A DNA stretch of 64,000 bases from Sphingomonadales bacterium (lineage in GTDB: Bacteria; Bacteroidota; Bacteroidia; UBA7662). Shown here piece by piece: positions 3,117 to 59,922 of the stretch. The stretch is from NCBI GenBank assembly GCA_016872215.1, contig VHAX01000006.1:5115-69114 (forward strand). The letters run 5' to 3'. The notes below the pieces were generated by a model, which was not told the origin of the DNA, did no database searches, and saw nothing but the letters and a program-made list of their open reading frames with translations. The translations under genes were made by a program, and so were the position numbers. Within the stretch, counting starts at the first letter, position 1. The number at the start of each line of letters is the position of its first letter.

Positions 3117-3824
3117 TCAGTGGGGATGCTGATGCACGGCCATCTTAGCTTTCAAAAAGGCCACCACAGCATCTAGTTCAGGGTCAGATAACACATCAGT
3201 ACCGAAACCGGGCATGGCGTTTTTGCCTTTGCGGATGAAGGACTTGGTTGCATCGCGGTCGAGGGTGCTGTGGACCAGATTTTTGGCACCAGCTACGCCC
3301 AAGGCGCCGTCAGAGCCGTGACAAGCCACACAGTAGAAGGTATAAAGCGCTTTGCCCTGAGAAACGTTGTCATTTAGCGCTTTACCAGCTATTGTTGAGT
3401 CTCTAATTGCCTTGACTCCCTCAAGGGCTTTGTGCGGCCCAAGGTTTTCGAAGTAATCGGACTTCTTCATCCGTGGGCTGCGGGTCTCCGATATGCCCCA
3501 TGAATAGAGGATCAGAAGCAGCGACAACAACGCCATGCCTTTGTTGGCCCTTCGAAATCCAATGACCGCCAGGGGAATGGAGGCGAAAACAGCAAGCAAC
3601 TTCACCCAAAACCAAACGCCTACCTGTACCGATGGGGTTTGAAGGGCCAATCCGATTCCGGTCAACAGAAACAAGGTGCTCACGATGATTTCTGCGATGC
3701 GGGTTTTTCGTCCGAATGGTTCAAGTAAAGCGGGTTTTAAATACAATAAAACCGTTTTTATGAGATAGAGCAGCAGGAAAAGGGAAACAACAAGGGTGTG
3801 TGTGTGTAATAGTCCGGTATACAT
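3117..3824 (-). CDS. Membrane-anchored c-type cytochrome
   Basis: N-terminal hydrophobic helices, then a CxxCH haem-binding motif (CVACHGSDG) and a typical class I cytochrome c C-terminal fold. Confidence 0.6.
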   Translation of the reverse strand: MYTGLLHTHTLVVSLFLLLYLIKTVLLYLKPALLEPFGRKTRIAEIIVSTLFLLTGIGLALQTPSVQVGVWFWVKLLAVFASIPLAVIGFRRANKGMALLSLLLILYSWGISETRSPRMKKSDYFENLGPHKALEGVKAIRDSTIAGKALNDNVSQGKALYTFYCVACHGSDGALGVAGAKNLVHSTLDRDATKSFIRKGKNAMPGFGTDVLSDPELDAVVAFLKAKMAVHQHPH

Positions 3825-3947
3825 ATGAGTGATGGGGTTGGAGTTCAGAGGAATCTACGTTACCCAAAAAATGGGCGTGGGTGAACTGCAAAAATAGTCA
3901 GGATTCGTGCGGAAGTTTACTCAGGTTTTCATGCGTTCAGGAATAAA

Positions 3948-5165: not shown

Positions 5166-5167
5166 CT

Positions 5168-8100
5168 ATGCAGCACCCATACCCCCTCAAAAATTCAGAA
5201 TGTCGAAACAGTGCCCTCAGGGGATTGTTATTGATGCTTCTTGCTCTCTACATCCCCAGCTATTCAGAGGCTCAGCCCCACTTTCCTTACAACGGAGTGC
5301 GCGATAGTCGTCCCGCCATATGGTATCTGAGCGGGGCAACGGTCATTAAATCGGCGGGCGACACCCTCAGAGATGGGGTTGTGGTGATCCGAAACGGACG
5401 AATAGAAGCGGTGGGTAAGCAAATACCCAAACCGACTGATGCCCGTGTGGTGGATCTGAAAGGAAAATTTGTGTACCCCGCATTCCTTGAGCCCGCGGCC
5501 AATTATGGGATGGATTCTCTGAAAACCCAGCGGTCACCCAAAGGATCGCGCCGCGAAGAAAGCCCTGTGCTGTTGCCCGAACGAGAGGGCGCCTGGAACG
5601 CCAATGATGCCATCCGGGCCGATCAAAGCGCTGCGGAGTTGTTTGTTGTGAAGTCGGAGGAGGCCGAAAAGTGGCGAAAGGCGGGATATGGGGCTGTGCT
5701 CACCCATCCCCGCGATGGAATTATGCGCGGCACCGGTGCGTGGGTGTCGACCGCTGACGGGCCGGAAGGCTCCGCCCTCCTGTTGCCATCGGCCAGTACG
5801 CATTACAGCTTCGATAAGGGAAGCAGCCGGCAGGATTACCCCTCATCGCTTATGGGCAGTATTGCCCTTTTGCGACAAACACATTATGATTTGCAGTGGT
5901 ACACACGGCAGGAAGCGGTGGGTAGGGTGTATGATCAGGTGCTCGACGCCATGCAGCGCACGGCATCACTCCCCAAGGTGTTCGAAACCCCCCGTAAGTA
6001 TGATGTTCTTCGTGTGGCTTCCATCGCCAAGGAATTTGGATTCCCCTTTGTGGCAACCGGAACAGGGGAGGAATACCAGTACATTCAAGACATTAAATCC
6101 ACAGGAGCGACGCTGTTGCTGCCCCTCAATTTCCCTGAACCTATGGATGTTCAGGACCCCTTCGATGCGCGAGAGGCCTCCCTATCGGCCATGATGCACT
6201 GGGAGATGGCCCCCGGAAACCCAGCCGTGGTGTACAGGGCGGGGGTCCCATTTGCAATAACGGGGAATGGACTAAAATCACCGGATGAGCTGCTGCCACG
6301 TTTGCGGACGGCCATTGAGCGTGGACTACCAGCAACTGCAGCATTGGAGGCCCTCACCCTGGCACCGGCCCGATTGTTCGGCGCCGGGCAATGGATGGGG
6401 AAGATTGAGAAGGGATATTTGGGGAATATCATTGTGTGTTCGCACCCCCTGTTTGATCCCGAAAACCAGATTATTGAGACCTGGACATCGGGGATTCCAT
6501 ACAACAACATCAAAGAAGAAATAAAGGTGGATTTGAGGGGCATCTACCGGCTGAACCGGGTTGAATGGGCCCCCAATGATGGTTTGGGTAAGGTGACGCC
6601 TAAAGCCTCGGTCGCATCCACCGAAACTGTAGAAGGACTGAAGGGGATGCAGCTCGTTGTCGGCGGTAGTCGCGCCAACTACGAAGTCGGACTACGCAGC
6701 AGCGATACGGCAAAATCGGTGGGCATGAAAGTGCGCTATCGACAGGGATTTCTGAGTCTATCGGTGCAGGACAGTAGTGTGAGTGGCGCACAAATGATAC
6801 GCCTGAGCGCATGGCGGGATGGGGTAGCGGGACTAAACGCACGTCTGGAACTGCCCGACGGCAGCATTTGGCGACTCGGATTCGACTCCATAGCACCCCA
6901 CACGGCCGACACCACCACCAAGAAGGCTAAGTCAACTCCACCCCTTCCCGCCGAAATCATGCGGTATCCATTTGCGGACCTGGGGCATGAGGAGTCCCCT
7001 CGTCACACCAATCTCTTGATCAAAGGGGTCACCGTGTGGACCAGCAGCGAATCGGGAATAATCAAAGAGGCGGATGTGGCTGTGCGCGACGGGAAAATAC
7101 TGGCCATTCGTACGACCGCTACGACAGATCCTGCAAGCTTGTTTGGCAAGGGGGTCGAATTCAGCGTCCGTGAGGGGAAGGGACTACACCTGACCCCGGG
7201 AATAATCGACGAGCACAGCCACATTGCCATCACCAGAGGCGTGAACGAGGGCACACGAAGCATCACCGCTGAGGTCCGCATCGGCGATGTACTCAACCCC
7301 GACGACGTCAACATTTACCGACAGCTCGCGGGAGGCGTAACCACCGCCCAACTGCTGCACGGATCGGCCAATGCCATAGGTGGACAAAGCGCAATTGTGC
7401 AGATGCGCTGGGGCGTTACCCACCCCGACTCACTGAAATTTCGCGGCGCCCCCGGTTTCATAAAATTCGCTCTGGGCGAAAACGTTAAGCAATCCAATTG
7501 GGGCGACATACATGTGGTACGTTTTCCGCAGACTCGTATGGGTGTGGAGCAGGTTATGATGGACGGATTCCTCAGGGCGCGGGAATATGCCGAGAAACGC
7601 AAGACCCAGCCGCAGACGACCCGCCGCGACCTCACTCTCGATGCCTTGGTAGAGATCCTGCGTGCTGAGCGTTTCATAACATGCCACAGCTATGTGCAGA
7701 GCGAAATCAATATGCTCATGAAGATGGCCGACTCAATCGGATTCAAGGTCAATACCTTCACACACATTCTGGAGGGCTATAAAGTGGCCGATAAAATGAA
7801 GCAGCATGGGGTGTCGGCCTCCAGCTTTGCCGATTGGTGGGCCTACAAATACGAGGTTATCGACGCCATCCCCCACAATGCGGCCATCCTGCATCGCGTG
7901 GGGGTGAACGTGGCCATCAACTCCGACGATGCCGAGATGGCGCGTCGCTTAAATCAGGAGGCGGCCAAGACCGTGAAGTATGGCGGACTCACCGAGGAGC
8001 AGGCCCTGAGGACAGTCACAATCAACCCCGCCCGCGCCCTGCGTATCGACCACAAGGTGGGGAGCATAGAGGTGGGCAAGCAGGCCGATCTGGTGCTTTG

Positions 8101-8372: not shown

Positions 8373-10841
8373 TCAACCCATGAGCCTGATGCGCAGACTC
8401 AGGCGGCGGGGCATGGAGGGACCGTATCGGTAAGACGCGTCCCTTACGGGCCCTACACTCAGGTCGTTTTGGTAGTTGTTCATACAGTTCTGGCACCCCA
8501 GTTCCGTGGCCATACGCAGTCGTGCACCTACTTTCCATAGTTTCTCGATCCACAAATCATGCTGACCCATGGCAGGGGTTCGCATGAGTGTCAATTCTCC
8601 TTGTGTGGTGGCATCCGTACGGGTTGTCCACATTGACCCGGTGAATTGCTGGTTGTACTGCAGCCACCACCCCCGGCTGAGGGCACGTCGTATGGTGAAG
8701 TAGCCACTCCACACCGGACAGCGAAGCATTTCCCGGCTCCACAACTCGCCATTCGAACCATTGGACAGGCGCAAGGTCGACTCATATCGGGACTTTTGCA
8801 GGCTAATGGATGCATCCCACTGCCAGCCGCCCCCCGCCACCGATCCTCGTGCCCCCAGCACCATTCCAAGCACCCGCGCATCGGGCCCATTCGATTTTTG
8901 CCAAATTATGGCGCCCCCCAATGCAGTGTCGAGATTGTTCAGCAGCAGGGGCCGCATCAAACGGGTATGAAAGCCCTCTGCGGTAATCATACAGTTGCTT
9001 TCGCCCTCCGCCAGTGCATATTCTGCCGTGATTGAATAGCCCACCGATCGCTCCTCGCGCAGTTGGGGCGACCAGCGTATGCTGCGTATAGAACCGCCCA
9101 CCAGCTCCACATGCAGGTCTTCGGTGAACACCTGAGGGGCGCGATAGCCACCGGACCGCACCAGAGATAGGGCCAAACGGTTTTCCGGAGCCTGCCAACG
9201 GATCGAACTCCGCCAAATTCCAGGTTGCCTTATATAGCTTATGATTACTCTGCCCGTATCTTGCCGAAATTCACCTGACAGGTTCACGCCGTCGCTCCGC
9301 CATCCCAGATGCAATCGCCATGATGGATGTGGTTGTCCCTCAACCTGCGCAAACCGGCTCCAGGTGAGCATTTGTTGCGCTATGCTTCGTTCCACCACAG
9401 GAAGGGCATCCGTCAAGTGTTTTCGGTTAAGCTCCGAACCCGCCAGCAGTCGCCAACCCGTAAAGAGACGGGTGTTCCATCGGAAACCAGTCTGTGTAAT
9501 CTGTTCATTCGACTGTCCATACTGGCTTATGTGACTGTCATTCCAGCCCGACCATACGCCCATCGGGCCCGTCTCTCGTCCGGTGCCGGAATGGGGCGGA
9601 GCTAGGCTATCACCCGAACCGCCGTAGAATGCCTTTCGTTGCGCCGCCTGCCGCGATAGGTAGAACCGGGCCTCGCGGTCGGTGAGCTCGTTGCGGTATG
9701 TGGCCTCGAGGTGACCCGAAAGGGATCGCTGGAGGATCTCTTCAGTGAGGCGTGCCTGTGGCGCAGCTACATACCAGTCGCTCCCTCCACGCCGTTCCTC
9801 TTCAATGGCGAGGCTGTTTAGACGGATGTTCCAGGTGCGTGACAGGCGCTTCTCTATCAAAAATCCTGTGGATGTGCCCCTCAGTCGCGCCACCTCGCTG
9901 AATCCATCGCCATCGTGGTCGTAGGGGGAGCGCAAACGGTGGTTGATGAAAGCCGTTGCGCTTGTCGGCCGCTTGTGAATCTTGTCGCGGCCCGTGGTAG
10001 GTTGCGGTCGTTGGGCCCAATCGGCATGCACACGCCAGAGGTGGTCGTCTGCACTTCCCCTATGCAGGATCGACGATTGCTGGAGCGCCCCCCAGCCCCG
10101 TTCTTGCGCCCTGCGTGTCACCACATTCACCACTCCACCCACGGCGTTTGCTGCGTAGGCAGCGGATCCTCCCCCCCTGAGCACTTCAATCCGGTCGATC
10201 AGGGCAGTCGGCAGGTGGTCGAGCCCATACGCCGTGTTGAGTCCACCCACGAGCGATTGCCCGTCGATCAATATCTGGGTGTACGGACCAGCCAGTCCGT
10301 TCAGTCGAACCTGAGTGTATCCACAGGTCTGGCAGTTGTTCTCTACCTGCACACCCGGTGTGTAGGGCAATGCCTCACCCAAATGGGTGGCGTTGACCTG
10401 TTCAATCCGCCGCGCGTCGATCGATTTGACCTCGGCCGGTGCACCGCAACTAATGTCTATCGCACTTTCAATCTGAACCTCTTCCAACTCTACCACTGCG
10501 GGTCGCAGGGTCACCGAAACGCCCTGGCAACCCCTATCACCCAGATCCAGGCGCAGGGTTTGGTAGCCAACGCTTCTGAAAATCAGTTGTTTTGGAGGAT
10601 GTTGACTCTGCAATTGAAACACCCCGCCGCCGTCGGTCGTGGTGGCAGCGCCCGTAGATGTTTGAACGCTTGCCGCTGGTGCGGGTATGGAATCGATTCG
10701 TTCGCCTATGTTTATGCGCAGCCAGACGCGGCCCGAACAATCAGACCCCGTCGCAGCTTGTTGCCCACTCACCTGACTGATCTGGGTCATCAACAGCCCC
10801 GCAAGCAAGCCGATGTAACGGTATGAGATCCCTCTGAGCAT
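8373..10841 (-). CDS. TonB-dependent outer-membrane receptor with N-terminal carboxypeptidase-regulatory-like domain
   Basis: Signal peptide, CarbopepD_reg-like segment, plug motifs (IDRIEVLRGGGSAAYAANAVGGVVNVVTRR) and a long beta-barrel region. Confidence 0.75.
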   Translation of the reverse strand: MLRGISYRYIGLLAGLLMTQISQVSGQQAATGSDCSGRVWLRINIGERIDSIPAPAASVQTSTGAATTTDGGGVFQLQSQHPPKQLIFRSVGYQTLRLDLGDRGCQGVSVTLRPAVVELEEVQIESAIDISCGAPAEVKSIDARRIEQVNATHLGEALPYTPGVQVENNCQTCGYTQVRLNGLAGPYTQILIDGQSLVGGLNTAYGLDHLPTALIDRIEVLRGGGSAAYAANAVGGVVNVVTRRAQERGWGALQQSSILHRGSADDHLWRVHADWAQRPQPTTGRDKIHKRPTSATAFINHRLRSPYDHDGDGFSEVARLRGTSTGFLIEKRLSRTWNIRLNSLAIEEERRGGSDWYVAAPQARLTEEILQRSLSGHLEATYRNELTDREARFYLSRQAAQRKAFYGGSGDSLAPPHSGTGRETGPMGVWSGWNDSHISQYGQSNEQITQTGFRWNTRLFTGWRLLAGSELNRKHLTDALPVVERSIAQQMLTWSRFAQVEGQPHPSWRLHLGWRSDGVNLSGEFRQDTGRVIISYIRQPGIWRSSIRWQAPENRLALSLVRSGGYRAPQVFTEDLHVELVGGSIRSIRWSPQLREERSVGYSITAEYALAEGESNCMITAEGFHTRLMRPLLLNNLDTALGGAIIWQKSNGPDARVLGMVLGARGSVAGGGWQWDASISLQKSRYESTLRLSNGSNGELWSREMLRCPVWSGYFTIRRALSRGWWLQYNQQFTGSMWTTRTDATTQGELTLMRTPAMGQHDLWIEKLWKVGARLRMATELGCQNCMNNYQNDLSVGPVRDASYRYGPSMPRRLSLRIRLMG

Positions 10842-10850
10842 TCGGTTCGT

Positions 10851-10968
10851 GTGGTTCGTTTAGGTTGATGGCAGAAGTATAACTAGGTATCTGGTAAAAG
10901 TGGTTCGTTTAGGTTGATGGCAGAAGTACTATGGGCATCAGGTAAAAGTGGTTCGTTTAGGTTGATGG
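10851..10968. repeat. Three tandem direct repeats (period ~49 bp) upstream of the TonB-dependent receptor gene
   Basis: GTGGTTCGTTTAGGTTGATGGCAGAAGTA starts at 10851 and 10899. A third, partial copy GTGGTTCGTTTAGGTTGATGG starts at 10948. A TTCGGTTCGT half-unit also lies at 10841-10850. Confidence 0.7.
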
Positions 10969-11024
10969 TTTAACTGCAATGGGAATCCTCAAAAAGAGCG
11001 ATTTGACACTACAAAAATAGAACA

Positions 11025-11054
11025 ATCTAAATAAATATTTAGACTAATCTAAAT
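11025..11054. promoter_or_regulatory. Composite AT-rich palindromic operator-like site (ATCTAAAT-n-ATTTAGACTAATCTAAAT)
   Basis: Inverted half-sites ATCTAAAT / ATTTAGAc / ATCTAAAT. The core ATTTAGACTAATCTAA matches the palindrome at 53417-53433 upstream of the metal ABC operon in 15 of 16 positions. Confidence 0.35.
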
Positions 11055-11108: not shown

Positions 11109-11588
11109 ATGAAATGGTCATACAGGTTTTTTTTTCGGTGGATGATTTTCAGGCGTCTCCCCCTGGCCTGGCTGGCGGGACTGCAGTTACAATCGTGCGA
11201 TGATCTTAAGTGTACAATATCACTAAGACATGGGTGGTTGAACCAGAATCCCTTCCGTTCCATTTATTTTGCCGCCCTTATGATGGCCGGCGAAATGGCG
11301 GGTGGACTACCAGCACTCCTGCACATACGGAAAAGGGGCTACAACAGCGCCATGCTCGTGACCCAAATCGAGGCGTCGTTCTACAAAAAGGCTGTCGGAC
11401 GGATCACGTTCCGCTTCGAAGAAGTGGCCGCTATGAGGGCAGCAGTCGATGCCGCACAACTGTCGCCCGACCAGGGCGCCACCTACCTGGCCATCACCCG
11501 CGCATACAATGAGAGGGGCGACAAAATAGCCGAGGTGCGTGCCCTCTGGAGCTTCCGCGCCCGTAATGCTGACCGCCGGCAAAACTGA
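11109..11588 (+). CDS. DUF4442-like hotdog-fold (thioesterase superfamily) protein
   Basis: About 150 aa whose pattern (SIYFAALMMAGEMAGG ... ITFRFEE) resembles the DUF4442/PaaI-like hotdog family. The true start may be an internal Met. Confidence 0.4.
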   Translation: MKWSYRFFFRWMIFRRLPLAWLAGLQLQSCDDLKCTISLRHGWLNQNPFRSIYFAALMMAGEMAGGLPALLHIRKRGYNSAMLVTQIEASFYKKAVGRITFRFEEVAAMRAAVDAAQLSPDQGATYLAITRAYNERGDKIAEVRALWSFRARNADRRQN

Positions 11589-26323: not shown

Positions 26324-26488
26324 GGGGTAAGATTAGGTTTCAAAAATAGAGAGAAATCGACGCCACCGAAATGGCATCCATAGGGGACTCTGGGCGCTAC
26401 CATTTTCTAGCGTCAAAAACCTTATTCTTCTCCTGAGCGTGACTGCTAGTCCCGCCAAAGAATCGGTGGCAAAATGACGAAGGTTTTA

Positions 26489-27102
26489 CCGAATGCAGGC
26501 TAGTCTTTCCTGTGCCGACTGATCGTCAGGTGTATTTAATAATACCCGATCAAACAAACGTGCCGCCTCATCAGTCTGGCCCAGAAATAGGCGGGTCCAA
26601 GCGCTCATCAGTATGGAGTAATAATCGAAGGGTGACAGCTCAAGGGAGATATCCAAAAATTTTTTGGCTTGCGCGTAATCCTCGCGGTAGTATTAGATCA
26701 GTCTCAAATGATAGATAGCAGAGCTGTTTTTGGGATCCAGAGCCAAAATTGACAGATATACTTTTTCTGCTACGATCCAATTTTCCTGCGCATTCAGTGG
26801 TAGAAGTTGTCCCCACAAGGGTTCCGTGGCTTTCGGATAGATCCTCTGCACCGCTTTGTAGTAGGCGATCGCCCGCACATATTGTCCGGCATGGTGGGCC
26901 AGCCATCCCAACCTCAGATTCACAGAGTACTCATTGAACTGATTGAGGGTCTGAGTCCATTGGGAATGGTGCTGAATGAGTTGCCCGTACCCGGATTGAA
27001 AATAAAGCCGCTCTCACTAATGGCGATGTTCTTGTTGATTTTTATGCGTTGTTCAGGAGGTTTCTGTGCGCTTGACGGGTTACTTTGAGGCTCTTCAGGC
27101 AC
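26489..27102 (-). pseudogene. Disrupted TPR-repeat protein gene (frameshift near 26925 and in-frame TAA near 26690)
   Basis: A minus-strand reading frame gives TPR-like repeats across an in-frame stop (...AIYHLRLI*YYREDYAQAKKFLDISLELSPFDYYSILM...). The upstream part continues in another frame (…SVNLRLGWLAHHAGQYVRAIAYYKA…). Confidence 0.4.
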
Positions 27103-38293: not shown

Positions 38294-38383
38294 GGAGAGG
38301 TGTCCGAGTGGTTGAAGGAGCACGCCTGGAAAGTGTGTATATCCGAAAGGGTATCGCGGGTTCGAATCCCGCCCTCTCCGCCA
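38294..38383 (+). tRNA. tRNA-Ser (anticodon GGA)
   Basis: GGAGAGGTGTCCGAGTGGTTGAAGGAG... cloverleaf with a long variable arm, T-arm GGTTCGAATCC and acceptor CCTCTCC, ending GCCA. The anticodon loop cctGGAaa gives GGA. Confidence 0.85.
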
Positions 38384-49694: not shown

Positions 49695-51233
49695 TTATTT
49701 TTGGGTGATCCGGCGGACCCGTACACGGGCGGCCAATGTGGTTGGTAGCGTATAGTCACCACGACTCGATTGCAAACAAACCACATCGGCTTGATCCGCA
49801 TAGATACGGGTGAAGGGCTGACCAGCGCTTATGCCTGCGTCCCACAATTTCAGTCGCACCCCTTCATCGGGTTGGGCGGATAGGATCATGCCCGCTTCGC
49901 CTGGTTCCAGTTCGGTGAGCCGGATAAACGATAAGTCTTCCAGATGCAGGTCATTTGTAGCCTCCCGTTGGGGAATTGAGGAGCCGTGTGGGTCGGTGAC
50001 CGGGTAACCCAGGCGGGCATCTACCGCATCGATAAAGCCTTGAGGCAGGCTATGTTCATAACGCTCGGCTTGCGCGTGCAGTTGACCTTCTGAAAGACCC
50101 ATTTCACGCCACAGATAGCTCTCCCACAAGCGATGCGCCCGAATAAGTTCGTAGGCGCGCTCGAGCCCGGCATCCGTCAACTTCCAACTCCCGCGACTCC
50201 CCTGCAATATCCATCCCCTGTTTTTCAATGATTGGAGACGCCTTAGCACAACACTTTCACTGAGGTTGAGTTTACCCGTGAGCGTATGAGTATCGAACTC
50301 TTCCCGTTCCTGTAGTTTTACGATCAGTTTCAGCACGTCCTCCAGTTGACGGGTGTGGCGGCGACTTCTACCGCGCAGGAATTGGGGGATGAGACCGTTA
50401 TCGGGGGAAAATAGTACGGCGAGCAGATATAGGACAAACGCCAGCAGGGTCATTGCAGGACCCGGAGGAAATTCCATCAGAATTGCTAGTATTAGTCCAC
50501 CCACGGCGGAAGCCACTCCGGTTGCGGCCGACAACAACAAAACCATGGGTAGTCGCTTGCTCAGGTGTAAGGCCGTCGACGCGGGTATGATGAGCATGGC
50601 CACTACCAGCACCACGCCCACCGACTGCAGGGAGGCAACTACAGCAAAGCTCAGGAGCAACATCATAAAATAATGCATCCAGTCGACCCGAATGCCGGAT
50701 GTTTGGGCGGTTACGACCTGGAAGGTGGTGATGAAGAAAAAGCGATAGAATAGTAGTATGCAGGCCACTGTGTATAATGCAATCAGTGCCCCAAGCCATA
50801 AATCCTCGTTGCCTATTCCCAAGACATTCCCGAACAGAAAGTCCTTCATGTCGAGGTGCACCCCCTGTCGGCGGGTTACCGCGGAAATTCCTATAATCCC
50901 CAGGGCGAACATGGCCGAGAATATGATACCGATCGCGGCATCTTCGCGGGCTTTGATTTTGCGCTGTAGCCAGGTGATCGCGGTGGCGGCTATAAGTCCC
51001 GCCACCACCGAACCTGTGAAAAAGGCGACCAGACTATGGCCGGCAATTAGAAATCCCGCCACAACACCAGGCAGGATAGCGTGCGACAAAGCGTCTCCGA
51101 TGAGCGACATATTTCTAAGTACTATGAACACCCCAAGCAGGCCACAGGTAATGCCAACGAGCACGGAGGCTAGCAGGGCACGTTGGGCGTAGGCCTGCTG
51201 CAGGATTTCGATGAGTTCACTATGGCCGTTCAT
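49695..51233 (-). CDS. Metal (Mn/Zn-type) ABC transporter permease fused to a C-terminal DtxR/MntR-family metal-dependent repressor domain
   Basis: N-terminal ~290 aa are an ABC-3 permease (8-9 TM helices; GDALSHAILPGV motif). The C-terminal ~220 aa carry a winged-HTH (…LKLIVKLQEREE…VLRRLQSLKNRGWI…), a DtxR-like dimerisation region and an SH3/FeoA-like tail. The ORF is continuous. Confidence 0.7.
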   Translation of the reverse strand: MNGHSELIEILQQAYAQRALLASVLVGITCGLLGVFIVLRNMSLIGDALSHAILPGVVAGFLIAGHSLVAFFTGSVVAGLIAATAITWLQRKIKAREDAAIGIIFSAMFALGIIGISAVTRRQGVHLDMKDFLFGNVLGIGNEDLWLGALIALYTVACILLFYRFFFITTFQVVTAQTSGIRVDWMHYFMMLLLSFAVVASLQSVGVVLVVAMLIIPASTALHLSKRLPMVLLLSAATGVASAVGGLILAILMEFPPGPAMTLLAFVLYLLAVLFSPDNGLIPQFLRGRSRRHTRQLEDVLKLIVKLQEREEFDTHTLTGKLNLSESVVLRRLQSLKNRGWILQGSRGSWKLTDAGLERAYELIRAHRLWESYLWREMGLSEGQLHAQAERYEHSLPQGFIDAVDARLGYPVTDPHGSSIPQREATNDLHLEDLSFIRLTELEPGEAGMILSAQPDEGVRLKLWDAGISAGQPFTRIYADQADVVCLQSSRGDYTLPTTLAARVRVRRITQK

Positions 51234-53407
51234 TTGGGTCCCAGTTGGTTGTGGTGAATCACTCCCGCTTCGTCGTAGAGTGAATGGAGTCCGGAATAGG
51301 TTTTCAGGATGTTCTCTTCGGTGAGGACTTCCTCGGGTCGACCAAATGCAATCAATCGCCGGTTGATGAGTATAATCTGATCAAAGATGCTGCGGGCACG
51401 GGTCAGATCATGGTGGATCATGAGCACCGATTTGCCAGTTTCCACCTCACGGCGCAGTACCTGTAGAATTTTATCCTCGGTAGATTGGTCAACTCCTGTG
51501 AAGGGCTCATCGAGCAGGTACCATTGGGGGCGTTGACAAAGTGTGCGGGCCAGAAATGCCCTTTGTTGTTGTCCACCGGAGAGGCCTCCAATCGGGCGGT
51601 GGCGCAGATGAAGGATGTCGAGTTCACTCATAGCTCGTTCCGCCTCCTGTAGGTCGTTTGGGTTGAGGAACTCCGCAGGCCGGTGGTGCGGATAGCGTCC
51701 CGTCAGCACCACATCTTGCACGGTGGCGGGAAAATTGAGGTCAATTTCCTCCCTTTGTGGCACATAGGCAACGCCTGTTGTGTGGTGGTGGAGGGGGTGG
51801 CCTGCCAGCTGCACACTCCCGCTGTCTGTTGATATGAGTCCGAGGGCCGACTTGAAGAGGGTGCTCTTTCCGGATCCATTGGGACCGACCAAGCCATAGA
51901 AGGCACCTGCGGGCAGGTCTAGCGAGAAATGCTGCAGTACGATGGTTTGTGAGTATGAGACCGATAGGCCGTCGATTTGCAGGGGGTGGCTGCGGAGGTC
52001 GATTTTCGGGGCGGGGCGTTGAATACGAAGGATCAGGAAAAAAACTGCGGCGGAAAAGCAGGCCACAATGATTAAAAGGAAAGCGAGGTTGCCGTTTTGT
52101 GAATGTTTGTCTGAGGGGTCTTCTGCTGGAATCGTTGTCTGGCCCTCCCTTTCCTGCAGCCCGCCGGAACCTGTTTCCTGTTGCGCACCGGAGCCTGTTT
52201 CCTGCAGCGCACCGGAACCTGTTTCCTGTTGCGCGCCGGAATCTATTCCCTCCGGTGCAAGTGCGGCTGCCAGTACCCTTGCGTTGTGTTTGAGCATGCT
52301 CAGGTATGTGTCGGCCCCGCTTCCTTTCGGGCCCATGCTGTCGGCATACAACTTTCCACCCAGGCGAATTCCACAATCTCGGGCCACTTGTTGCATGAGT
52401 CGCGGATTGAGTGTGGTTTCTACAAACAGCGCGGGTAGTTGCCGGCTTTGGATGTTTCTGATCATTTCCTGCAGGTCACCCGCCCGTATTTCAGCATCGG
52501 TAGTGGTGCCCAGTAGCGATAGAACCCCAAAGCCATAGCGGTTACCCATATAACGGAACGCATCGTGAGTGGTGGCGATGACCCGATGTTCGGGGGGAAT
52601 GGTCAACAAGATTCGCCGGATGTAGACGTCGGTTTTCTGAATTTGTTGATCATAATGATACCACCTGTTCACCAGTTCCTCTTGATGCTCGGGCAGAATG
52701 CTGATAAGAGCTTCGCAGATGTTGCGGGCGTATGCGCGGCCGTGTATGGGGTCCATCCAGGCGTGGGGGTCTACGCTTCCTGCGTGTTCAATGCTTTGGA
52801 TGGGCACGATTCCGCGTGTGGCGGTCACCCTAAGGGCTTGTTTACTGGTGTTTCGGATCAATTTTTCCAGCCAGCCCTCCAGTGTGAGTCCGTTTTCTAT
52901 GACCACGTCTGCCCTTGCCAGCAGCGCGGCGTCTCCAGGCGTGGCTTCATAGGTATGGGGGTCGGTACCTGTGGGGAGCAGCGACACCACTTCGCAGGCA
53001 TCACCGGCGAGGTTGGCGGTTATATCGGCCAGGAACCCGGTTGTGGCCACCACCAAGGGGCGTTGCCCCGGGCCTTTTTTGTTACTTGTTTGGTGGGATG
53101 TGGATTCAGGATTAGGAGAAGCAGACCGCTGTTTGGAATTTTGATCGAGTTGTTTTAAGGATGCGGATTGAGTGCCTTTACCATTTTGCCCGTTGGCATC
53201 TAGTGATGTGTTAAGGGTAATGTGCTCCATGTTGACGCTCGAAAACGTGTTATGAGCGTTACTGGAAGTGGTAGGCACATCGTTGCTTCTGGCGGTAACA
53301 ATAAATAGCGAGATTGTTAGAAATAGGATGAAAAATCGCCAGAATGACCGTAATCGGGGCATCCGCTTCAAAATAGGTCGACGAACAGCGCTCATGGGGA
53401 AATGCAA
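51230..53407 (-). CDS. Fusion of signal peptide, periplasmic metal-binding protein (ZnuA/MntA-like), repeat linker, single TM helix and ABC ATPase (ZnuC/MntB-like)
   Basis: Signal peptide (…FILFLTISLFIVTARS), S/N/T-rich extension and a cluster-A-1 SBP domain (LVVATTGFLADITANLAG…DPHAWMDP…). Then a linker with 3x ETGSGAQQ, a hydrophobic helix LAFLLIIVACFSAAVFFLIL, and an ABC NBD (GPNGSGKST, LSGGQQQRAFLAR, LLDEPFTGVD). It is a single 725-aa ORF. Confidence 0.7.
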   Translation of the reverse strand: MHFPMSAVRRPILKRMPRLRSFWRFFILFLTISLFIVTARSNDVPTTSSNAHNTFSSVNMEHITLNTSLDANGQNGKGTQSASLKQLDQNSKQRSASPNPESTSHQTSNKKGPGQRPLVVATTGFLADITANLAGDACEVVSLLPTGTDPHTYEATPGDAALLARADVVIENGLTLEGWLEKLIRNTSKQALRVTATRGIVPIQSIEHAGSVDPHAWMDPIHGRAYARNICEALISILPEHQEELVNRWYHYDQQIQKTDVYIRRILLTIPPEHRVIATTHDAFRYMGNRYGFGVLSLLGTTTDAEIRAGDLQEMIRNIQSRQLPALFVETTLNPRLMQQVARDCGIRLGGKLYADSMGPKGSGADTYLSMLKHNARVLAAALAPEGIDSGAQQETGSGALQETGSGAQQETGSGGLQEREGQTTIPAEDPSDKHSQNGNLAFLLIIVACFSAAVFFLILRIQRPAPKIDLRSHPLQIDGLSVSYSQTIVLQHFSLDLPAGAFYGLVGPNGSGKSTLFKSALGLISTDSGSVQLAGHPLHHHTTGVAYVPQREEIDLNFPATVQDVVLTGRYPHHRPAEFLNPNDLQEAERAMSELDILHLRHRPIGGLSGGQQQRAFLARTLCQRPQWYLLDEPFTGVDQSTEDKILQVLRREVETGKSVLMIHHDLTRARSIFDQIILINRRLIAFGRPEEVLTEENILKTYSGLHSLYDEAGVIHHNQLGPK
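52140..52262 (-). repeat. In-frame 21-bp x3 tandem repeat encoding the (ETGSGAQQ)-type linker of the SBP–ATPase fusion
   Basis: (ccggaacctgtttcctgttgcgcac)-like units repeated. The peptide is GAQQETGSGALQETGSGAQQETGSGGLQE. Confidence 0.6.
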
Positions 53408-53416
53408 AAATACAGA

Positions 53417-53433
53417 ATTTAGACTAGTCTAAT
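53417..53433. promoter_or_regulatory. Palindromic operator-like site ATTTAGAC-TA-GTCTAAT directly upstream of the metal ABC operon (candidate DtxR/MntR box)
   Basis: TTAGAC-TA-GTCTAA is a perfect inverted repeat starting 12 bp upstream of the annotated start codon (53407). It is near-identical to the site at 11036-11054. Confidence 0.4.
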
Positions 53434-53792
53434 ATTTAATTTCGATGTGTCTTAAATCGCATAAGTTAAGTTTATTCACAAATGAAATTTTGGTATCCAA
53501 ACTCTTTCCGCAAATTCTGTGTTTATTTTGCGTATTCAAATTTCTACTGCTTATGTTCTTTTTCTTGCCGCCTTCACCCCCAGCCGCTCCTGTAGTCGTC
53601 AACGTTCTGGCTGTTGATCCACCCAAATCAGACGGACGGCTCCTGACTGGTGGTGTAAACCGTTACGCATCTCGCATCTTCCTCCCAGCCATTTGGGCTG
53701 TCGGAATACCTGCCATGCCTAGATCTTCCTTACCCAACTCCTTTAACGAATCCATCTTAAACCAACATATTCTTCATTCTAAATCCAATAAA

Positions 53793-54401
53793 ATGTCATT
53801 TGAATTACCTCCCCTCCCCTACGCCTACGACGCGCTGGAACCGCACATCGATTCATCCACCATGCAAATTCACCATGGTAAACACCACGCGGCTTACGTC
53901 AACAATCTAAATGCAGCCCTCACAGGAACGCCACATGAGGGCAAGTCACTCGAAGAGCTGATGTCGATCGTGAGTCAGTTGTCGCCCGCTGTTCGGAACA
54001 ATGGTGGCGGTCACTACAACCATAGCTTGTTCTGGACAGTTTTGTCGCCCAAAGGCAGTGGCGCCCCAACCGGAGAATTGGCCAACGCCATACAGCGTGA
54101 CTTCGGGTCTTTTGAGACTTTCAAAGAGAAGTTTGCGCAGGCCGCGGCCACACGTTTTGGTTCCGGATGGGCCTGGCTGTGCTCGGAAAAAGGAAAACTA
54201 TCGATTTGTAGTACGCCCAACCAAGACAATCCCCTGATGGATGTGGTTACGGATTGCAACGGCATTCCAGTATTGGGATTGGATGTATGGGAACACGCGT
54301 ACTATCTCAAATACCAGAACCGCCGCACCGACTACATATCAGCGTTCTGGAATGTGGTGAATTGGGATGAGGTCAGCCGACGATACGCTGCGGCACGCTA
54401 A
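53793..54401 (+). CDS. sodA: Fe/Mn-family superoxide dismutase
   Basis: [32 protein letters not shown]...[18 protein letters not shown]. The ORF-track entry 53445..54401 includes a spurious 5' extension, and the true start is the Met at 53793. Confidence 0.9.
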
Positions 54402-54470: not shown

Positions 54471-55787
54471 TTATTGATCCCACCAAAGACGTTGCAGAAA
54501 CCCATCAGCACCCTGTAAATCGATAAAATTGCTGTTGTAGAGGCGCTCATTCTGAGGATAAGGAAGTCTACGGGGAATTTCAGCGTATTGGGCGCCTGGA
54601 TAGACAGCGAGCGTTGGATAATTGGTGCGGCGCCAATCGGTCCACGCTTCCACATGTGAGAACATCGCCACGTACTTTTCGTTCATAACCTGCTCCAGAG
54701 TTGGATTGGCAGCAAGTGCGTTCAAATAGGTTGTGGCAGCTGCTGAGGGAACGCCTAAAGCCGACATATTGGCGTCCACCGCAGAGATAAGCGCCGTGCC
54801 TGCACCCGATGACTGGCGCTGGCGAACTTCAGCCTCGATGAACTTCAATTCCGCATAGGTCATCAAATTCAGCGGCGAGGTTTCCGAACCATAAGCAGGC
54901 ATTTCGGAAGAGTCGGCCGAACGATAAAGAGATATTCTCGGGTCATTTTTACCCTCCATCAGGGTATACATGGTGCCAAATTGACTAATATATCCAGCTC
55001 TTTGGGTGTTGAACTGATACCAGGGATTGGTGTTGGGCGACACCTGGAAGGTAATGCGCGCATCATCGGCGTTCGACGACAAACCTGCGGCAACTTCTGT
55101 CAGAATCGCAGCTGGGTTGTAATCAGGTTTCTTCGAAAGATGGTTCATGTAGCGCGCTTTCAGGGAATGCGCCAGTTTGGTCCACCTGGTCAGATTGCCC
55201 GCATATACCAAATCCTCGGCACCTGGCTTGGTAGATGATGCAGTGGCCGCCATATTGGCGATTGCCTCATCCAACAAGGTCATGATGCTTGCATAAATCT
55301 GCGCTTGCGAATCATAGGACGGATTCAAGCCATCGGCACCCTTCATGGCATCGGAATAGGGGATGTTACCCCAGATGTCAGTGAAGTGTCCCAGGTACAT
55401 AGCTGTCATCACCTTTGCAACACCCGCATAATGTGGGGACGATGCCTCAGTCTTGTCGATGATGATTTTCAAGTCATACAAGCCGCCGGCGTATCCATTG
55501 TCGGACCACACCTGATCGAAATCAGCCTCACCGATTTGCGCGTAGCGGTTATGGGCGAGCGACTGCCGGTCGGTGCCGGTCATTTGCTGCATGAAAATGG
55601 AAGTGAGGCGGGCCACCGCATCGCCCTGTGCCATCCCGAAGGAGATTTGGGCGGAGGGAAGCAAAACCTGAACTGATACGTCCGACGGGCGGGCAGGATC
55701 GGTGGAATATTCTTCCAACCATTCCTTAGAGCACCCCGCAAGAACGAAAAGCAGGAAGGTGAGTGAAAAATAAGTTAGTTTTTTCAT
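54471..55787 (-). CDS. SusD/RagB-family nutrient-binding outer-membrane lipoprotein
   Basis: Lipoprotein signal (LFVLAGCSKEW), TPR-like helical fold typical of SusD, and a position immediately downstream of a SusC-like gene. Confidence 0.8.
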   Translation of the reverse strand: MKKLTYFSLTFLLFVLAGCSKEWLEEYSTDPARPSDVSVQVLLPSAQISFGMAQGDAVARLTSIFMQQMTGTDRQSLAHNRYAQIGEADFDQVWSDNGYAGGLYDLKIIIDKTEASSPHYAGVAKVMTAMYLGHFTDIWGNIPYSDAMKGADGLNPSYDSQAQIYASIMTLLDEAIANMAATASSTKPGAEDLVYAGNLTRWTKLAHSLKARYMNHLSKKPDYNPAAILTEVAAGLSSNADDARITFQVSPNTNPWYQFNTQRAGYISQFGTMYTLMEGKNDPRISLYRSADSSEMPAYGSETSPLNLMTYAELKFIEAEVRQRQSSGAGTALISAVDANMSALGVPSAAATTYLNALAANPTLEQVMNEKYVAMFSHVEAWTDWRRTNYPTLAVYPGAQYAEIPRRLPYPQNERLYNSNFIDLQGADGFLQRLWWDQ

Positions 55788-55802
55788 GTTTCTTATCTGT
55801 TT

Positions 55803-58800
55803 TTAGAAGTTGGCTTTCAGACTGAAGATAATGCCCTTAGTGTTGGGCATGTTGAAGTAATCGGCGCCCTGACTATTTGTAGCACCCGAAAGGTTCGTTT
55901 CTGGGTCTATGCCTTTGTAGTCGGTAAACAACAATAGGTTTCTTCCGGATACACCGAGTGTGATGCCTTTTAGGGTACTTCCCGATTTAAAGTGATCGGA
56001 AGGCAAGCGGTAGTTCAAAGAAAGTTGACGCAGGCGAACCCAGGACCCGTCCTCGATGAATGGACTTGAGGCACCGGTGAAGCCACTGAGTGGACCCGTT
56101 GCATATGAAGTGTAGTCTGCCGGAATGGGAGTATTGTTGGCCTGTCCGCTCACGTCTTCGCCATTGATGATGGTTCCAGGTGCATAAACACCCGTGTTTC
56201 CAGTTTTTACATCAGTCCAAACAAACTCGCCAGAGCGATCACCGCCTAAATCGGCATGGGTGCCGAAATAGTAGAGCGCACCGCGGGTACCGTTCCATAT
56301 GTCGCCGCCCTGACGAATGTCCCAAAGCATGTCCATGCTCCAATTGCCCCAGCTGAGGTCTGAGTTTATGCCCATCAGCCAATCGGGGTTCGGATTGCCC
56401 ACCACAACTTCTGTTGATGAATAGATTGGGTAGCCATTCTCATCAACCAAAGCATTGCCATTGGCGTCGCGCTCCCAGTCATCCCCATACAGGGTTCCAT
56501 AGGCCTCGCCTTTCACAAGGCGCTGATTGGCACCGTAAAAGCCCCATGGCAAGTCGATGACATCCACTCCAGGGGCTAGTTCAACTACCTTGTTGCGGTT
56601 TCGGGTAAACACCACGCCTGCATTCCATTTCAACGAATTGTTGTCGACCAGCTTGATGCGGGTGTTCAACTCGATACCCTTATTTTCCATCTGACCAATG
56701 TTCTGGTACATATTCGTGAATCCAGTCGAACCAGCAACGGGCACCGCAACGATCAAGTCCTTCGACTGCTGGTTGTAATAGGTAAGGTCGACAGTGATGC
56801 GATTGTCGAGCAGACCCAATTCCAGGCCGATTTCATTGGTTTGGGTGAACTCAGGTCGCAGGTTGGGGTTACCCAGTACATCCGACAGGGAGAAGCCCGT
56901 TGTGGTGCCAAAGGGGAATTGTATGCCATCGATCCAGCCTGAAAAGGAGCCGGCTTTGTTGTAATAGGTGCGGTTGGAACCAAAGGCTGGCTCAAGACCC
57001 ACCTTGGCTGTAGAGAACCGTAGTTTACCTGAGCTCAAGGTGCCCGTATTCATGCCAAATGTCTCGCTGAACATCCAGCTTCCGCTAACGGATGGATAGA
57101 AGATAACCTGAGACACATCTCCAAAAGTGGAGGCTTGGTCGCCCCGTGCGGTAGCGGTCAGGAAGAACTGGTTTTGGTAGCCGAGCGACAATTCTCCATA
57201 AACTCCGGCGAGTCGACGGCGCTCCACGCTTTGTGAGGCAATGATGTTCGAAGCGTTGGATAGGTTATTGAATCCTTCTAACGCATAGCCATCTCCTTGT
57301 GCATAAACGTTATCCAAGTTGCGCTGGTTCACATTCCAGCCCAGCAACAGATTGGCATCGAGGTCGCCGAATTGCTTTTTGGCTCGGGCCACCAGATCAC
57401 TGTTTAATTCCGACCAGGTATATACGTCTTCTATGATCCGGCCATTCACGGCTGTACGTGATTGCCTGGCCAAAATTTGTGTCCTGCGGTCGGTGTAGTT
57501 ATCCGTACCCAGACGGTACATTAAAGATAGCCAATCGTTCGCATTGTAATCGGCTTGTACATATCCCTGCACACGGTTCACTTTGTCGTTGAATGGGTTT
57601 TTGTTTATGGTCCAATAAGGGTTATCATAGGTGGTGTGGTACCTGCGTTGTGTTCCGTTTGGTAAAAGGAATGATGCAGGATCATCGGCCTCCGTGGCGC
57701 CCCCTGAATTGTCAAATGTGGGCGAAGTGCGCAGCAATCCCAGCATGAGTCCAGAGGTATTTGAACCCTGTTGAATGCGCTGACCACCGGAGGTAGAGAA
57801 ATTTACGGATGATGACAATTTCATTTTTTGTGAAACTTGAGCCATACCGCTTGCGCGAACGGTAGTTCTGCTGAACTCATTCAAGGGAATGATCCCCGAC
57901 TCGCGGAGATTACCAACCGACATATAATAGGTGGTGCGGTCATTTCCTCCCGAAACACTCAAATTGTTGTTGAACCGGTATCCCGTGCGGAAGAAATCGT
58001 ATTGCTCGAATTTGGGTACAGTTCCTTTCGTGCCGGGTGCCATGAGGGAGTCAACCCCAGTGATGCTGCCACTGCTTGTGAAGCCCAAATCGCTGACTTT
58101 TGGTCCCCATGAAAAGGGTGTGGAGTTTCCGTTGGCGAATGAACGATAAACGCCCAGCCCTTGTGCATAGGTGTCCTGCAGTTCGGGGAGTTTGTTGGGC
58201 GACATGGTTTCCATGGAGGAAGAATAGTCGACCGTGAACGGGCGATTGAACTTGCCTTTCTTGGTGGTGATCAGGATCACACCATTGGCACCCCTGGTGC
58301 CATAAAGTGAAGCGGCGGCCCCGCCTTTCAATACTGAAATATCCTCGATGTCATCGGGGTTGATGTCGATGGCACGATTTGAAAGAGATACCCCGGCGCG
58401 CAAGTCCTCGGTGTTTAGTTGAGAGTTATCGATTGGCACCCCATCCACCACAAATAGCGGTTGGTTGTCATTCGCGCTGAACGAGGCGTTACCCCTGATT
58501 TTAATGTAGGAGGCAGCTCCGGCGGCACCACTCGAAGCGGTTACCTGAACCCCGGCGGCTTTGGCTGACATGGCGGATACCATATTGCTTTCGCCAGATG
58601 CCCGGATTTCGGCCCCTCCGACCTGTTCTACACTGTAACCCAAAGCCTTCTTTTCGCGGTTGATGCCCAATGCGGTAATCACCACTTCCCCCAATTGCTC
58701 GGCATCAGGCGACATCAGGACATCCATGGGCGCCGATGTGACCTTCATCGAGAGCTTTTGCATACCCAAATAGGTAAAGCTAATAGTAGCGTCGGCCGAA

Positions 58801-59000
58801 GCCACACGCAGACGGAAATGACCTTCCGCATTGGAGATAGTGCCGTTGGTCGTGCCTGTTTCCACCACGGCAACGCCCGACAACGGTGTTTTTCGGACGG
58901 CATCACGAATAATTCCGGTTGCCGTTATTGATTGAGCTGAGGCTAACCCCATAGGCACAAGCCAGCAAACCAAGCAGAGAAAAAGTTTGTTTGTGTTCAT
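55803..59000 (-). CDS. SusC/RagA-family TonB-linked outer-membrane protein
   Basis: 1065 aa with a signal peptide, CarbopepD_reg-like N-terminal domain, TonB-box/plug (…VLKGGAAASLYGTRGANGVILITTKKG) and a large barrel. Confidence 0.85.
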   Translation of the reverse strand: MNTNKLFLCLVCWLVPMGLASAQSITATGIIRDAVRKTPLSGVAVVETGTTNGTISNAEGHFRLRVASADATISFTYLGMQKLSMKVTSAPMDVLMSPDAEQLGEVVITALGINREKKALGYSVEQVGGAEIRASGESNMVSAMSAKAAGVQVTASSGAAGAASYIKIRGNASFSANDNQPLFVVDGVPIDNSQLNTEDLRAGVSLSNRAIDINPDDIEDISVLKGGAAASLYGTRGANGVILITTKKGKFNRPFTVDYSSSMETMSPNKLPELQDTYAQGLGVYRSFANGNSTPFSWGPKVSDLGFTSSGSITGVDSLMAPGTKGTVPKFEQYDFFRTGYRFNNNLSVSGGNDRTTYYMSVGNLRESGIIPLNEFSRTTVRASGMAQVSQKMKLSSSVNFSTSGGQRIQQGSNTSGLMLGLLRTSPTFDNSGGATEADDPASFLLPNGTQRRYHTTYDNPYWTINKNPFNDKVNRVQGYVQADYNANDWLSLMYRLGTDNYTDRRTQILARQSRTAVNGRIIEDVYTWSELNSDLVARAKKQFGDLDANLLLGWNVNQRNLDNVYAQGDGYALEGFNNLSNASNIIASQSVERRRLAGVYGELSLGYQNQFFLTATARGDQASTFGDVSQVIFYPSVSGSWMFSETFGMNTGTLSSGKLRFSTAKVGLEPAFGSNRTYYNKAGSFSGWIDGIQFPFGTTTGFSLSDVLGNPNLRPEFTQTNEIGLELGLLDNRITVDLTYYNQQSKDLIVAVPVAGSTGFTNMYQNIGQMENKGIELNTRIKLVDNNSLKWNAGVVFTRNRNKVVELAPGVDVIDLPWGFYGANQRLVKGEAYGTLYGDDWERDANGNALVDENGYPIYSSTEVVVGNPNPDWLMGINSDLSWGNWSMDMLWDIRQGGDIWNGTRGALYYFGTHADLGGDRSGEFVWTDVKTGNTGVYAPGTIINGEDVSGQANNTPIPADYTSYATGPLSGFTGASSPFIEDGSWVRLRQLSLNYRLPSDHFKSGSTLKGITLGVSGRNLLLFTDYKGIDPETNLSGATNSQGADYFNMPNTKGIIFSLKANF

Positions 59001-59151: not shown

Positions 59152-59790
59152 CTAGAAGTAAACAGACAGTACAATCTGTCCGCCTGCATTGTCGTTTCCA
59201 ATGATGGTATGGCTGCTTTTGGCATCACCCATTTTAGTGCTGCCAAGCATAAGTCCTAATCCATACTCGGCACCGATGGAAACTTTTGGCCAAATAAAGT
59301 ATTGTGCACCTACAAAGCCGCGTGCCATAATTTCTGTGCCGCTCTCTTCGGTTTTGGTACTTCCTACTTCGGTTTTGTCGCTTGAAATCCCTAATCCTGC
59401 CTCAGCACCATAATATCCCATGATTCTATTGCCTCTGCGCAGTTTCATCATCCCAGCCATCAGGCTAATGTTTGACGCTGAAATAGTGCTGGTGTCGTTG
59501 GGCTTTGATGAAGCCATCCCAATTCCGATTCCTGCCCGATAAGCAAGATCATCCGATTTCATGTATGTGCCTACCAAGGTATTTTCACGTTGCCAATCCA
59601 TTTCGACCGAATTGCCGTCAGAAAATAAATTTCCGATGTAATTCAAGGCGGGCGCAGCGTTAAATCCGATAGAGTAATCTCCAGCGGCAGGTAAACGATC
59701 TTGTGCCCAGGCAGTAGCAGTGAACAAAAGAGAAGCGATGATCAGTGAAAAGATTTTTTTCATAAAAAAGGGTTTAATTTTCCTACTCAT
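59152..59790 (-). CDS. Outer-membrane beta-barrel protein (OmpA-beta-barrel/porin-like, OmpW-type size)
   Basis: Signal peptide MKKIFSLIIASLLFTATAWAQ, alternating amphipathic strands and a C-terminal ...VYF. Confidence 0.55.
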   Translation of the reverse strand: MSRKIKPFFMKKIFSLIIASLLFTATAWAQDRLPAAGDYSIGFNAAPALNYIGNLFSDGNSVEMDWQRENTLVGTYMKSDDLAYRAGIGIGMASSKPNDTSTISASNISLMAGMMKLRRGNRIMGYYGAEAGLGISSDKTEVGSTKTEESGTEIMARGFVGAQYFIWPKVSIGAEYGLGLMLGSTKMGDAKSSHTIIGNDNAGGQIVLSVYF

Positions 59791-59922
59791 AAGGCTTTTC
59801 GGTCACGCCCTGTTTGATTGGTTTTCTTGACTCCAAAGATTTATTAACACAAAGGTAATGTGGAAAATAATCGGGACAATTGCGGGGCACAAAAAGTTAT
59901 CCACACCTAATGTGGTTTTAAA

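Follow-up and report, generated by a model that had tools for sequence, protein, structure and literature searches.

Several DtxR-family systems provide the background for the locus described here. Among the regulators of solved structure, SloR, ScaR and Mycobacterium MntR are manganese-responsive, contain a FeoA/SH3 domain and are the closest relatives of the transporter-fused domain discussed below, with which they share the metal-ligand pattern. The streptococcal operators are AATTAA-N6-TTAATT palindromes, which gives them a 4-6-4 geometry like that of the box under study. In Treponema, the troABCDR genes are arranged in the order binding protein, ATPase, permease(s) and DtxR-family regulator (TroR), and TroA-type proteins use His as the third metal ligand. 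Outside this family, ToxR and CadC carry a DNA-binding-type domain and membrane segments in one polypeptide, and their DNA-binding domain is conserved and demonstrably reads DNA. DtxR-family operators and manganese regulons are well known. Such regulators are also used in Bacteroidota: PgMntR of Porphyromonas gingivalis, a DtxR-family protein that stands alone, senses Mn2+ and binds the promoter of a manganese transporter gene (PMC4805248). For the iron box of DtxR, the consensus is TTAGGTTAGCCTAACCTAA, and identical DtxR dimers bind its opposite faces (PMC7762939).

Here we analyse a palindromic box at two promoters of the window, by which we mean the whole 64-kb stretch of DNA that was studied. 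One promoter belongs to an ABC-type metal importer and the other to a TonB-dependent receptor. Judged from its sequence and surroundings, the box very probably serves as a DtxR-family operator in a regulon for metal uptake to which the receptor belongs. Our comparison with the DtxR/IdeR iron box of Corynebacterium and Mycobacterium reveals that both are built from TTAG and CTAA half-sites with centres 10 bp apart, and that both overlap the core promoter of metal-uptake genes. Positions 1–14 and 6–19 of TTAGGTTAGCCTAACCTAA are two TTAG-N6-CTAA units offset by 5 bp, each of which scores about 15 bits with the position weight matrix (PWM) described below. As the 19-bp iron box reads as two such units, the box would correspond to one dimer unit of a DtxR-family operator. 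The original prediction had likened it to boxes of the DtxR/IdeR/MntR type, and this assignment is supported by the shared TTAG-N6-CTAA unit, the position at the core promoter and the DtxR-family genes nearby.

By comparison, the iron box is 19 bp long and consists of two overlapping units offset by 5 bp, with two dimers on opposite faces, whereas the box described here is a single unit of 14–16 bp; the 19-bp double palindrome of the DtxR/IdeR subtype is not found at the window sites. Where a second site is present, it lies 22 bp away on the same helix face, unlike the 5-bp offset within the iron box. The repressor of the iron box is a metal-loaded DtxR-family dimer (PMC7762939), and the same would hold here, but the metal of the iron box is Fe2+ and that of the present system probably Mn2+.

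The other known systems differ from this locus in distinct ways. Compared with the operators of SloR, ScaR and MntR, the half-site of the box is TTAG and not TTAA; in addition, the hosts of these regulators are Gram-positive, and none of the regulators is fused to a transporter. The importer operon has the same gene order as Treponema troABCDR, but only two genes, both fusions, encode its four functions, and the regulator-like part is covalently attached to the permease. PgMntR differs in its twin FeoA domains, its Cys ligand and its target, feoB2 (PMC4805248); the text of that paper defines no PgMntR operator sequence. As in ToxR and CadC, a DNA-binding-type domain and membrane segments are united in one polypeptide, whereas the DNA-reading surface of the fused domain is not conserved here. 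Full-text literature searches directed at the fusion, at the MntR regulon of Bacteroidota or at its operator returned no description of a TTTAG-N6-CTAAA motif, of an MntR-controlled TonB-dependent receptor in Bacteroidota, or of a permease-DtxR fusion.

Two strong copies of a palindromic box in the window

The importer site reads ATTTAGACTAGTCTAA, that is gaATTTAGACTAGTCTAAtatt, at 53417–53432. Its core, TTAGACTAGTCTAA at 53419–53432 (given without strand, like all boxes below), is a perfect 14-bp palindrome and a predicted strong operator box, confirming the inverted repeat that had been noticed upstream of the metal operon. The receptor site reads ATTTAGACTAATCTAA, that is atATTTAGACTAATCTAAatta, at 11037–11052. 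Its core, TTAGACTAATCTAA at 11039–11052 (TTAGATTAGTCTAA on the minus strand), is likewise a predicted strong operator box (box 1) and lies between the genes for the TonB-dependent receptor and a DUF4442 protein. When the 64-kb window was searched with the 16-mer at up to three mismatches, the sites at 53417 and 11037 were recovered, each on both strands owing to the dyad symmetry, together with one weak site at 26693. The number of matches expected by chance is 0.35, and none of 100 shuffled sequences reached 5 matches. Because the window has a G+C content of about 52%, an exact repeat of an AT-rich 16-mer is unlikely to arise by chance.

A symmetrised PWM was built from 22 distinct orthologous ABC-importer boxes, with the 53419 site included and the 11039 site and all receptor-promoter sites left out. 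In the window it ranks 11039–11052 first (30.2 bits) and 53419–53432 second (25.3 bits). The remaining sites score at most 13 bits or, at 53441–53454, about 13.2 bits, and the maxima of shuffled sequences range from 6.5 to 19.2 bits. The claim of a near-identical second copy, with none else in the 64 kb, therefore holds in the sense that only two copies are strong, the third (26693) being weak. The TTAG and CTAA positions carry 1.6–1.7 bits of information each and the central six positions 0.2–0.7 bits. The resulting consensus is wTTTAGrynnryCTAAAw, a palindrome of 14–16 bp with the short form TTTAG-N6-CTAAA, and its TTAG/CTAA half-sites, at a centre-to-centre distance of 10 bp, are near-invariant among the 22 distinct orthologous boxes.

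The weak site at 26693–26706 (13 bits) was rejected as a chance match, being within the shuffle range and inside broken TPR-like ORFs. The surrounding stretch, 26333–27100, contains short broken TPR-like ORFs and no long frame, and is possibly a decayed gene.

Organization of the importer promoter and operon

The entire ABC importer is encoded by two fusion genes on the minus strand (49695–53395). Gene 1 (51230–53395, minus strand) encodes a ZnuA-like binding protein, one membrane helix and an ABC ATPase in a single chain of 721 aa. Gene 2 (49695–51233, minus strand) encodes an ABC-3 permease followed by a DtxR/MntR-like domain, which is composed of a winged helix, a metal/dimerisation part and an SH3/FeoA-like part. 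The start of gene 1 is most likely the ATG at 53395–53393 and not the TTG at 53407; a length of 721 aa is also found in the orthologues and in the independent gene calls of three assemblies. With the operon start reassigned to this ATG, the box is situated 24–37 bp upstream of the start codon, which corrects the earlier figure of 12–25 bp.

The −7 box of Bacteroidota sigma-A promoters has the consensus TAnnTTTG at −12 to −5 (PMC9723704). Such an element is present on the minus strand at 53412–53405 and at 11019–11012, as in the orthologues. At the importer, the matching element is TATTTTTG (53405–53412, minus strand), found at the same place in orthologues. Placing TAnnTTTG at −12 to −5 gives a predicted transcription start near 53400 and puts the importer box at about −32 to −19. 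In addition, a weak distal box (TAAGACACATCGAA on the minus strand, 53441–53454) is located 22 bp from the strong box; its score of 13.2 bits is not significant alone. L002 and L033, the two closest relatives, have this weak box as well.

Several further features surround the operon. Between the binding protein and the membrane helix, the gene 1 linker is a Gly/Ser/Gln-rich repeat (GSGAQQET, four times). A gene for a Mn/Fe superoxide dismutase of the Mn type (53793–54401, plus strand) is divergent from the operon, about 360 bp from the importer box, and is found likewise in 14 related loci; the PWM scan detected no box near its own start. The listed ORF 53445–54401 would give the superoxide dismutase a 116-codon N-terminal extension that is probably untranslated. 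Adjoining the superoxide dismutase gene is a pair encoding a SusC-like (1065 aa) and a SusD-like (438 aa) protein (54471–59000, minus strand), which is unrelated to the box.

Organization of the receptor promoter

A second copy had been placed between a TonB-dependent receptor gene and a hotdog-fold gene; our analysis confirms this position and indicates that the promoter there faces the receptor. The receptor gene (8373–10841, minus strand; 822 aa) is a predicted member of the regulon, and the divergent DUF4442 hotdog-fold gene (11109–11588, plus strand) is a possible co-regulated member. The −7 element of the receptor gene is again TATTTTTG (11012–11019, minus strand), with a predicted transcription start near 11007. 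Relative to this start, the strong box occupies about −45 to −32, and a weak box occupies −23 to −10. The latter is a degenerate box 2 at 11017–11030 (TTAGATTGTTCTAT on the minus strand; 12.8 bits), which is located 22 bp from box 1, overlaps the −7 element and is kept in the orthologous loci L041–L044. A third half-site (ATCTAAAT) had been described at 11025–11032; the sequence is indeed present, but it belongs to this degenerate second box.

In the direction of DUF4442, box 1 is followed after about 22 nt by a −7-like element oriented towards this gene, which matches well in L041 and L043 and imperfectly in the window. Co-control of DUF4442 via box 1 is possible.

A metagenome scan recovered four close receptor orthologues (L041–L044) at 67–68% identity, all other matches being distant (27–31%). 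The box is present in all four, at 30.0–30.5 bits, and the divergent DUF4442 gene is kept in all four. Read in the direction of the receptor, these loci share one layout, in which the strong box is followed by 8 bp and then by the degenerate box TTAGATTGTnCTAT, whose end runs into TAnnTTTG. Individually, the weak boxes score within the shuffle range; what makes them credible is the fixed offset of 22 bp.

The predicted 166-nt leader of the receptor gene is filled by a 48-bp tandem repeat at 10851–10987 (2.8 copies; three exact copies of CATCAACCTAAACGAACCAC), which is unique in the window. The insert is absent from L041–L043, where the ATG follows the −7 box after about 10 nt, and the insert of L044 is a different one, about 120 nt long and containing similar CCATCAACC motifs. 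The leader RNA, rich in C and A, is not structured (z = +1.14) and matches no Rfam family. Elsewhere in the window, gathering-level Rfam matches are a DUF805 RNA motif (62 bits; 59776–59841, minus strand) and a tRNA (38294–38380, plus strand).

Conservation of the box across related loci

A survey of the importer with one genome per species yielded 40 loci with relatives of the permease fusion, all from Bacteroidota MAGs and with 44–94% identity; 37 of them are informative, and 3 are without upstream sequence. The box is found upstream of the fusion operon in 30 of the 37 informative loci, including six in which the permease-fusion gene comes first. It is absent in the remaining seven, where the fusion gene sits inside another arrangement. 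All loci that hold the 5' end of the binding-protein/ATPase gene show TTTAG-N6-CTAAA, then TAnnTTTG and then a nearby ATG. At the ABC operon, the box ends 6–12 nt upstream of TAnnTTTG, and the ATG lies a few nucleotides further on. Among the boxes, the six central positions drift and the dyad symmetry is maintained.

Sites scoring at least 19.8 bits in the 990 kb of loci occur only upstream of fusion operons or receptor orthologues. The highest score in 556 kb of unrelated loci from gut Bacteroidales, scanned as a negative control, was 13.7 bits. The distant receptor homologues L045–L120 (gut Bacteroidales, 27–31% identity) were rejected as orthologues; they have no box and were used as negative control. 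The conservation check that accompanied the original prediction thus returned the box at both promoters in orthologous loci (30 of 37 for the importer and 4 of 4 for the receptor), and this conservation supports the proposed mini-regulon that includes a TonB-dependent uptake step.

The box beside stand-alone regulators and Nramp genes

Stand-alone canonical DtxR/MntR genes adjoin the box in six loci (L012, L040, L125, L126, L127 and L130). Scoring 29.4–30.3 bits in these loci, the box stands in front of an mntR-ZnuA-ABC operon in L125, L126 and L012/L040 and in front of Nramp-Usp genes in L127 and L130. The operon preceded by the box in L126 (29.4 bits) is an unfused regulator-ZnuA-ATPase operon. 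In L127 (6016–6051, 30.3 bits) and L130 (8716–8751, 30.2 bits), the downstream gene encodes an Nramp (MntH) protein fused to a universal-stress-protein domain and stands beside a stand-alone regulator. Both loci contain a strong-plus-weak pair of boxes at the 22-bp offset, as at the receptor promoter, and the second box of these Nramp promoters overlaps the −7 box.

In L012, L040 and L125, a stand-alone regulator and the fused permease are encoded in one operon preceded by the box, and the regulator gene (1865–2584, 3530–4201 and 5001–5660, respectively) is placed between the box and the transporter genes. In L125, moreover, the binding protein and the ATPase are encoded by separate genes, and there is a second permease that is not fused.

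Four of the eight contexts with a stand-alone regulator (L121/122, L123/124, L128 and L129) are without a nearby box. On account of these four contexts, autoregulation of the stand-alone regulators was rejected, and the box appears to follow transporter genes rather than the regulator gene. With the exception of the receptor loci, the box adjoins a DtxR-family gene or domain at every locus found.

The fused DtxR-like domain and the likely reader of the box

The fused polypeptide comprises an ABC-3 permease, a linker of only about 20 residues between the last membrane helix and the helix-turn-helix (HTH), and the DtxR-like domain, which makes up residues 285–512 approximately. JGI annotation names both halves of this fusion, which has more than 2000 relatives in protein databases, mostly in Bacteroidota; some relatives are without the C-terminal SH3/FeoA-like domain (417–440 aa forms). 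The fused domain aligns from residue 5 of the solved manganese-responsive members 5zr4 (a Mycobacterium-type regulator), SloR and ScaR, with E values of 1e-15 to 4e-17. The ligand pattern H..E...H...E..EH is kept, with Glu in place of DtxR Cys102. In an alignment of 28 fusion proteins, set beside their boxes, the metal/dimerisation segment is nearly invariant (LIRAHRLWESYL ... QIHxQAExxEH ... DPHGSPIP). An internal start releasing a soluble DtxR domain was considered and rejected: the stretch from the last membrane helix to the HTH contains no ATG, and the only available GTG would remove the N-terminal metal ligands.

The original prediction suggested that the box may be the operator of this membrane-tethered domain. 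On such a reading, the DtxR-like domains of a permease homodimer, once loaded with metal, would bind the box at the membrane and autoregulate both the operon and the receptor gene. The domain has the complete DtxR-family layout with all metal ligands conserved, and its HTH is still basic (net +3.1). The single permease gene would imply a homodimer and hence a ready-made pair of domains. Furthermore, 30 of 37 loci combine the fusion gene with the box, including loci in which the fusion gene heads the operon, and no stand-alone DtxR-family gene was found in the 64-kb window or in the 21-kb loci around the operon.

Against this proposal stands the hypervariability of the recognition helix and wing, as compared with the invariant core of the box. 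The recognition helix differs even in close relatives, reading LSESVVLRRLQSL in the window and QRENFITGRLISL in L002 at 84% overall identity. We compared 116 fused with 120 stand-alone proteins: the mean pairwise identity of the recognition helix is 0.26 in the former versus 0.78 in the latter, and that of the metal/dimerisation domain 0.63 versus 0.76. No other part of the fused proteins is as poorly conserved as the recognition helix and wing. Nonsynonymous divergence (dN) was computed for six pairs, and only dN and amino-acid identity were used, as synonymous sites are saturated in most of them; the dN of the fused recognition helix is 0.37–0.48 for four of the five diverged pairs and 0.14 for the remaining one, compared to 0.03–0.06 for the membrane domain. 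The Pfam HTH model PF01325 matches the stand-alone proteins but gives no match to the fused ones. The DNA-reading residues of the fused domain are thus not conserved among orthologues that share the operator. An invariant operator core fits a reader with an invariant helix and not one with a drifting helix, which favours a soluble regulator.

The genomic contexts point the same way. The three operons that encode both a soluble regulator and the fused permease (L012, L040 and L125) indicate that the fused domain does not replace the soluble regulator there. In addition, the same box precedes Nramp genes beside soluble regulators, and the last membrane helix and the HTH are separated by only about 20 residues. 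Reading of the box by the tethered domain is unlikely on these grounds. Most likely, the box is instead read by a soluble MntR-type protein of the canonical kind, which we assume to be encoded elsewhere in the genome, while some auxiliary or non-specific DNA binding by the fused domain may occur.

We consider it quite improbable that the box is read by a protein of another family, such as a Fur/Zur/PerR-like or Bacteroidota-specific factor, and that its likeness to the DtxR box is coincidental. Short AT-rich palindromes are used by many families, and half of the stand-alone DtxR contexts are without the box; however, TTAG-N6-CTAA is the exact dimer unit of the DtxR/IdeR box, and everywhere except at the receptor loci the box stands beside a DtxR-family gene or domain. 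Direct comparison with the Fur box GATAATGATAATCATTATC (7-1-7 repeats; consensus quoted in PMC7762939) showed no resemblance. That the palindrome is instead a promoter or structural element (−33/UP-like or a terminator-like hairpin) or a chance repeat, as its AT-richness and its overlap with the −33 element position might suggest, can hardly be credited, since it is confined to metal-uptake promoters across about 1 Mb of loci, is absent from the 556-kb control with its many promoters, keeps its dyad symmetry while the central 6 bp drift, and lies upstream of the predicted start sites and so would not be transcribed as a hairpin.

The metal of the regulon

Mn2+ is favoured as the metal of the regulon, given that Nramp genes belong to it, that the ligands of the fused domain are of the manganese type (Glu for DtxR Cys102) and that its nearest solved relatives, SloR and ScaR, are manganese sensors. 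The binding-protein domain of the importer has His as the third metal ligand (THDAFRY), resembling TroA/ZnuA/AztC in this respect, and its best NCBIfam match is the zinc protein AztC. On these two counts, Zn2+ is a possible regulon metal.

A proposed mechanism of regulation

Taken as a whole, we regard it as fairly probable that the box is the operator of a manganese-responsive MntR-type repressor, that importer and receptor form one regulon, and that the reader is soluble. From the features described above we infer that the box mediates repression, which metal is sensed and which protein binds. In this model, one metal-loaded repressor dimer would bind both TTAG/CTAA half-sites. When Mn2+ is sufficient, the loaded repressor would occupy the boxes, occlude the −33 to −7 region and block the sigma-A RNA polymerase, following the paradigm of the family. 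When Mn2+ is scarce, the boxes would be vacated, and the inner-membrane ABC importer and the outer-membrane TonB-dependent receptor would both be expressed. At the receptor and Nramp promoters, a second, weaker box covers the −7 box; it lies on the same face as the strong box, at a distance of two helical turns, and may permit cooperative binding and a tighter shut-off.

A separate and more speculative role is suggested for the fused domain. Having lost conserved DNA-reading residues, it may more likely be a metal sensor attached to the transporter; present in two copies per permease homodimer, it might sense cytoplasmic metal for the transporter itself. We tentatively suggest, as a proposal about which we remain rather doubtful, that the domain descends from a transcription factor, has ceased to read DNA and now acts as a built-in cytoplasmic Mn2+ sensor of the importer, which could either shut the transporter at sufficient Mn2+ (trans-inhibition) or capture soluble MntR via the highly conserved dimerisation surface that both share. 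The combination of a fast-evolving DNA-binding part with a frozen metal-binding part makes a transporter-attached metal sensor a testable idea.

Implications for manganese uptake in Bacteroidota

Our analysis separates two questions that had been merged in the original prediction. The cis-element appears to be ordinary DtxR-family biology, whereas the fate of the fused domain is more unusual. For the former, TTTAG-N6-CTAAA is an operator model that can be used for the MntR-type regulon in a large section of Bacteroidota, most of it uncultured, and a TonB-dependent outer-membrane receptor is predicted to be part of this manganese uptake regulon. For the latter, if the sensor reading is true, the coupling between transport activity and transcription would operate at two levels, in a regulon that would also contain a manganese-regulated TonB-dependent receptor in Bacteroidota.
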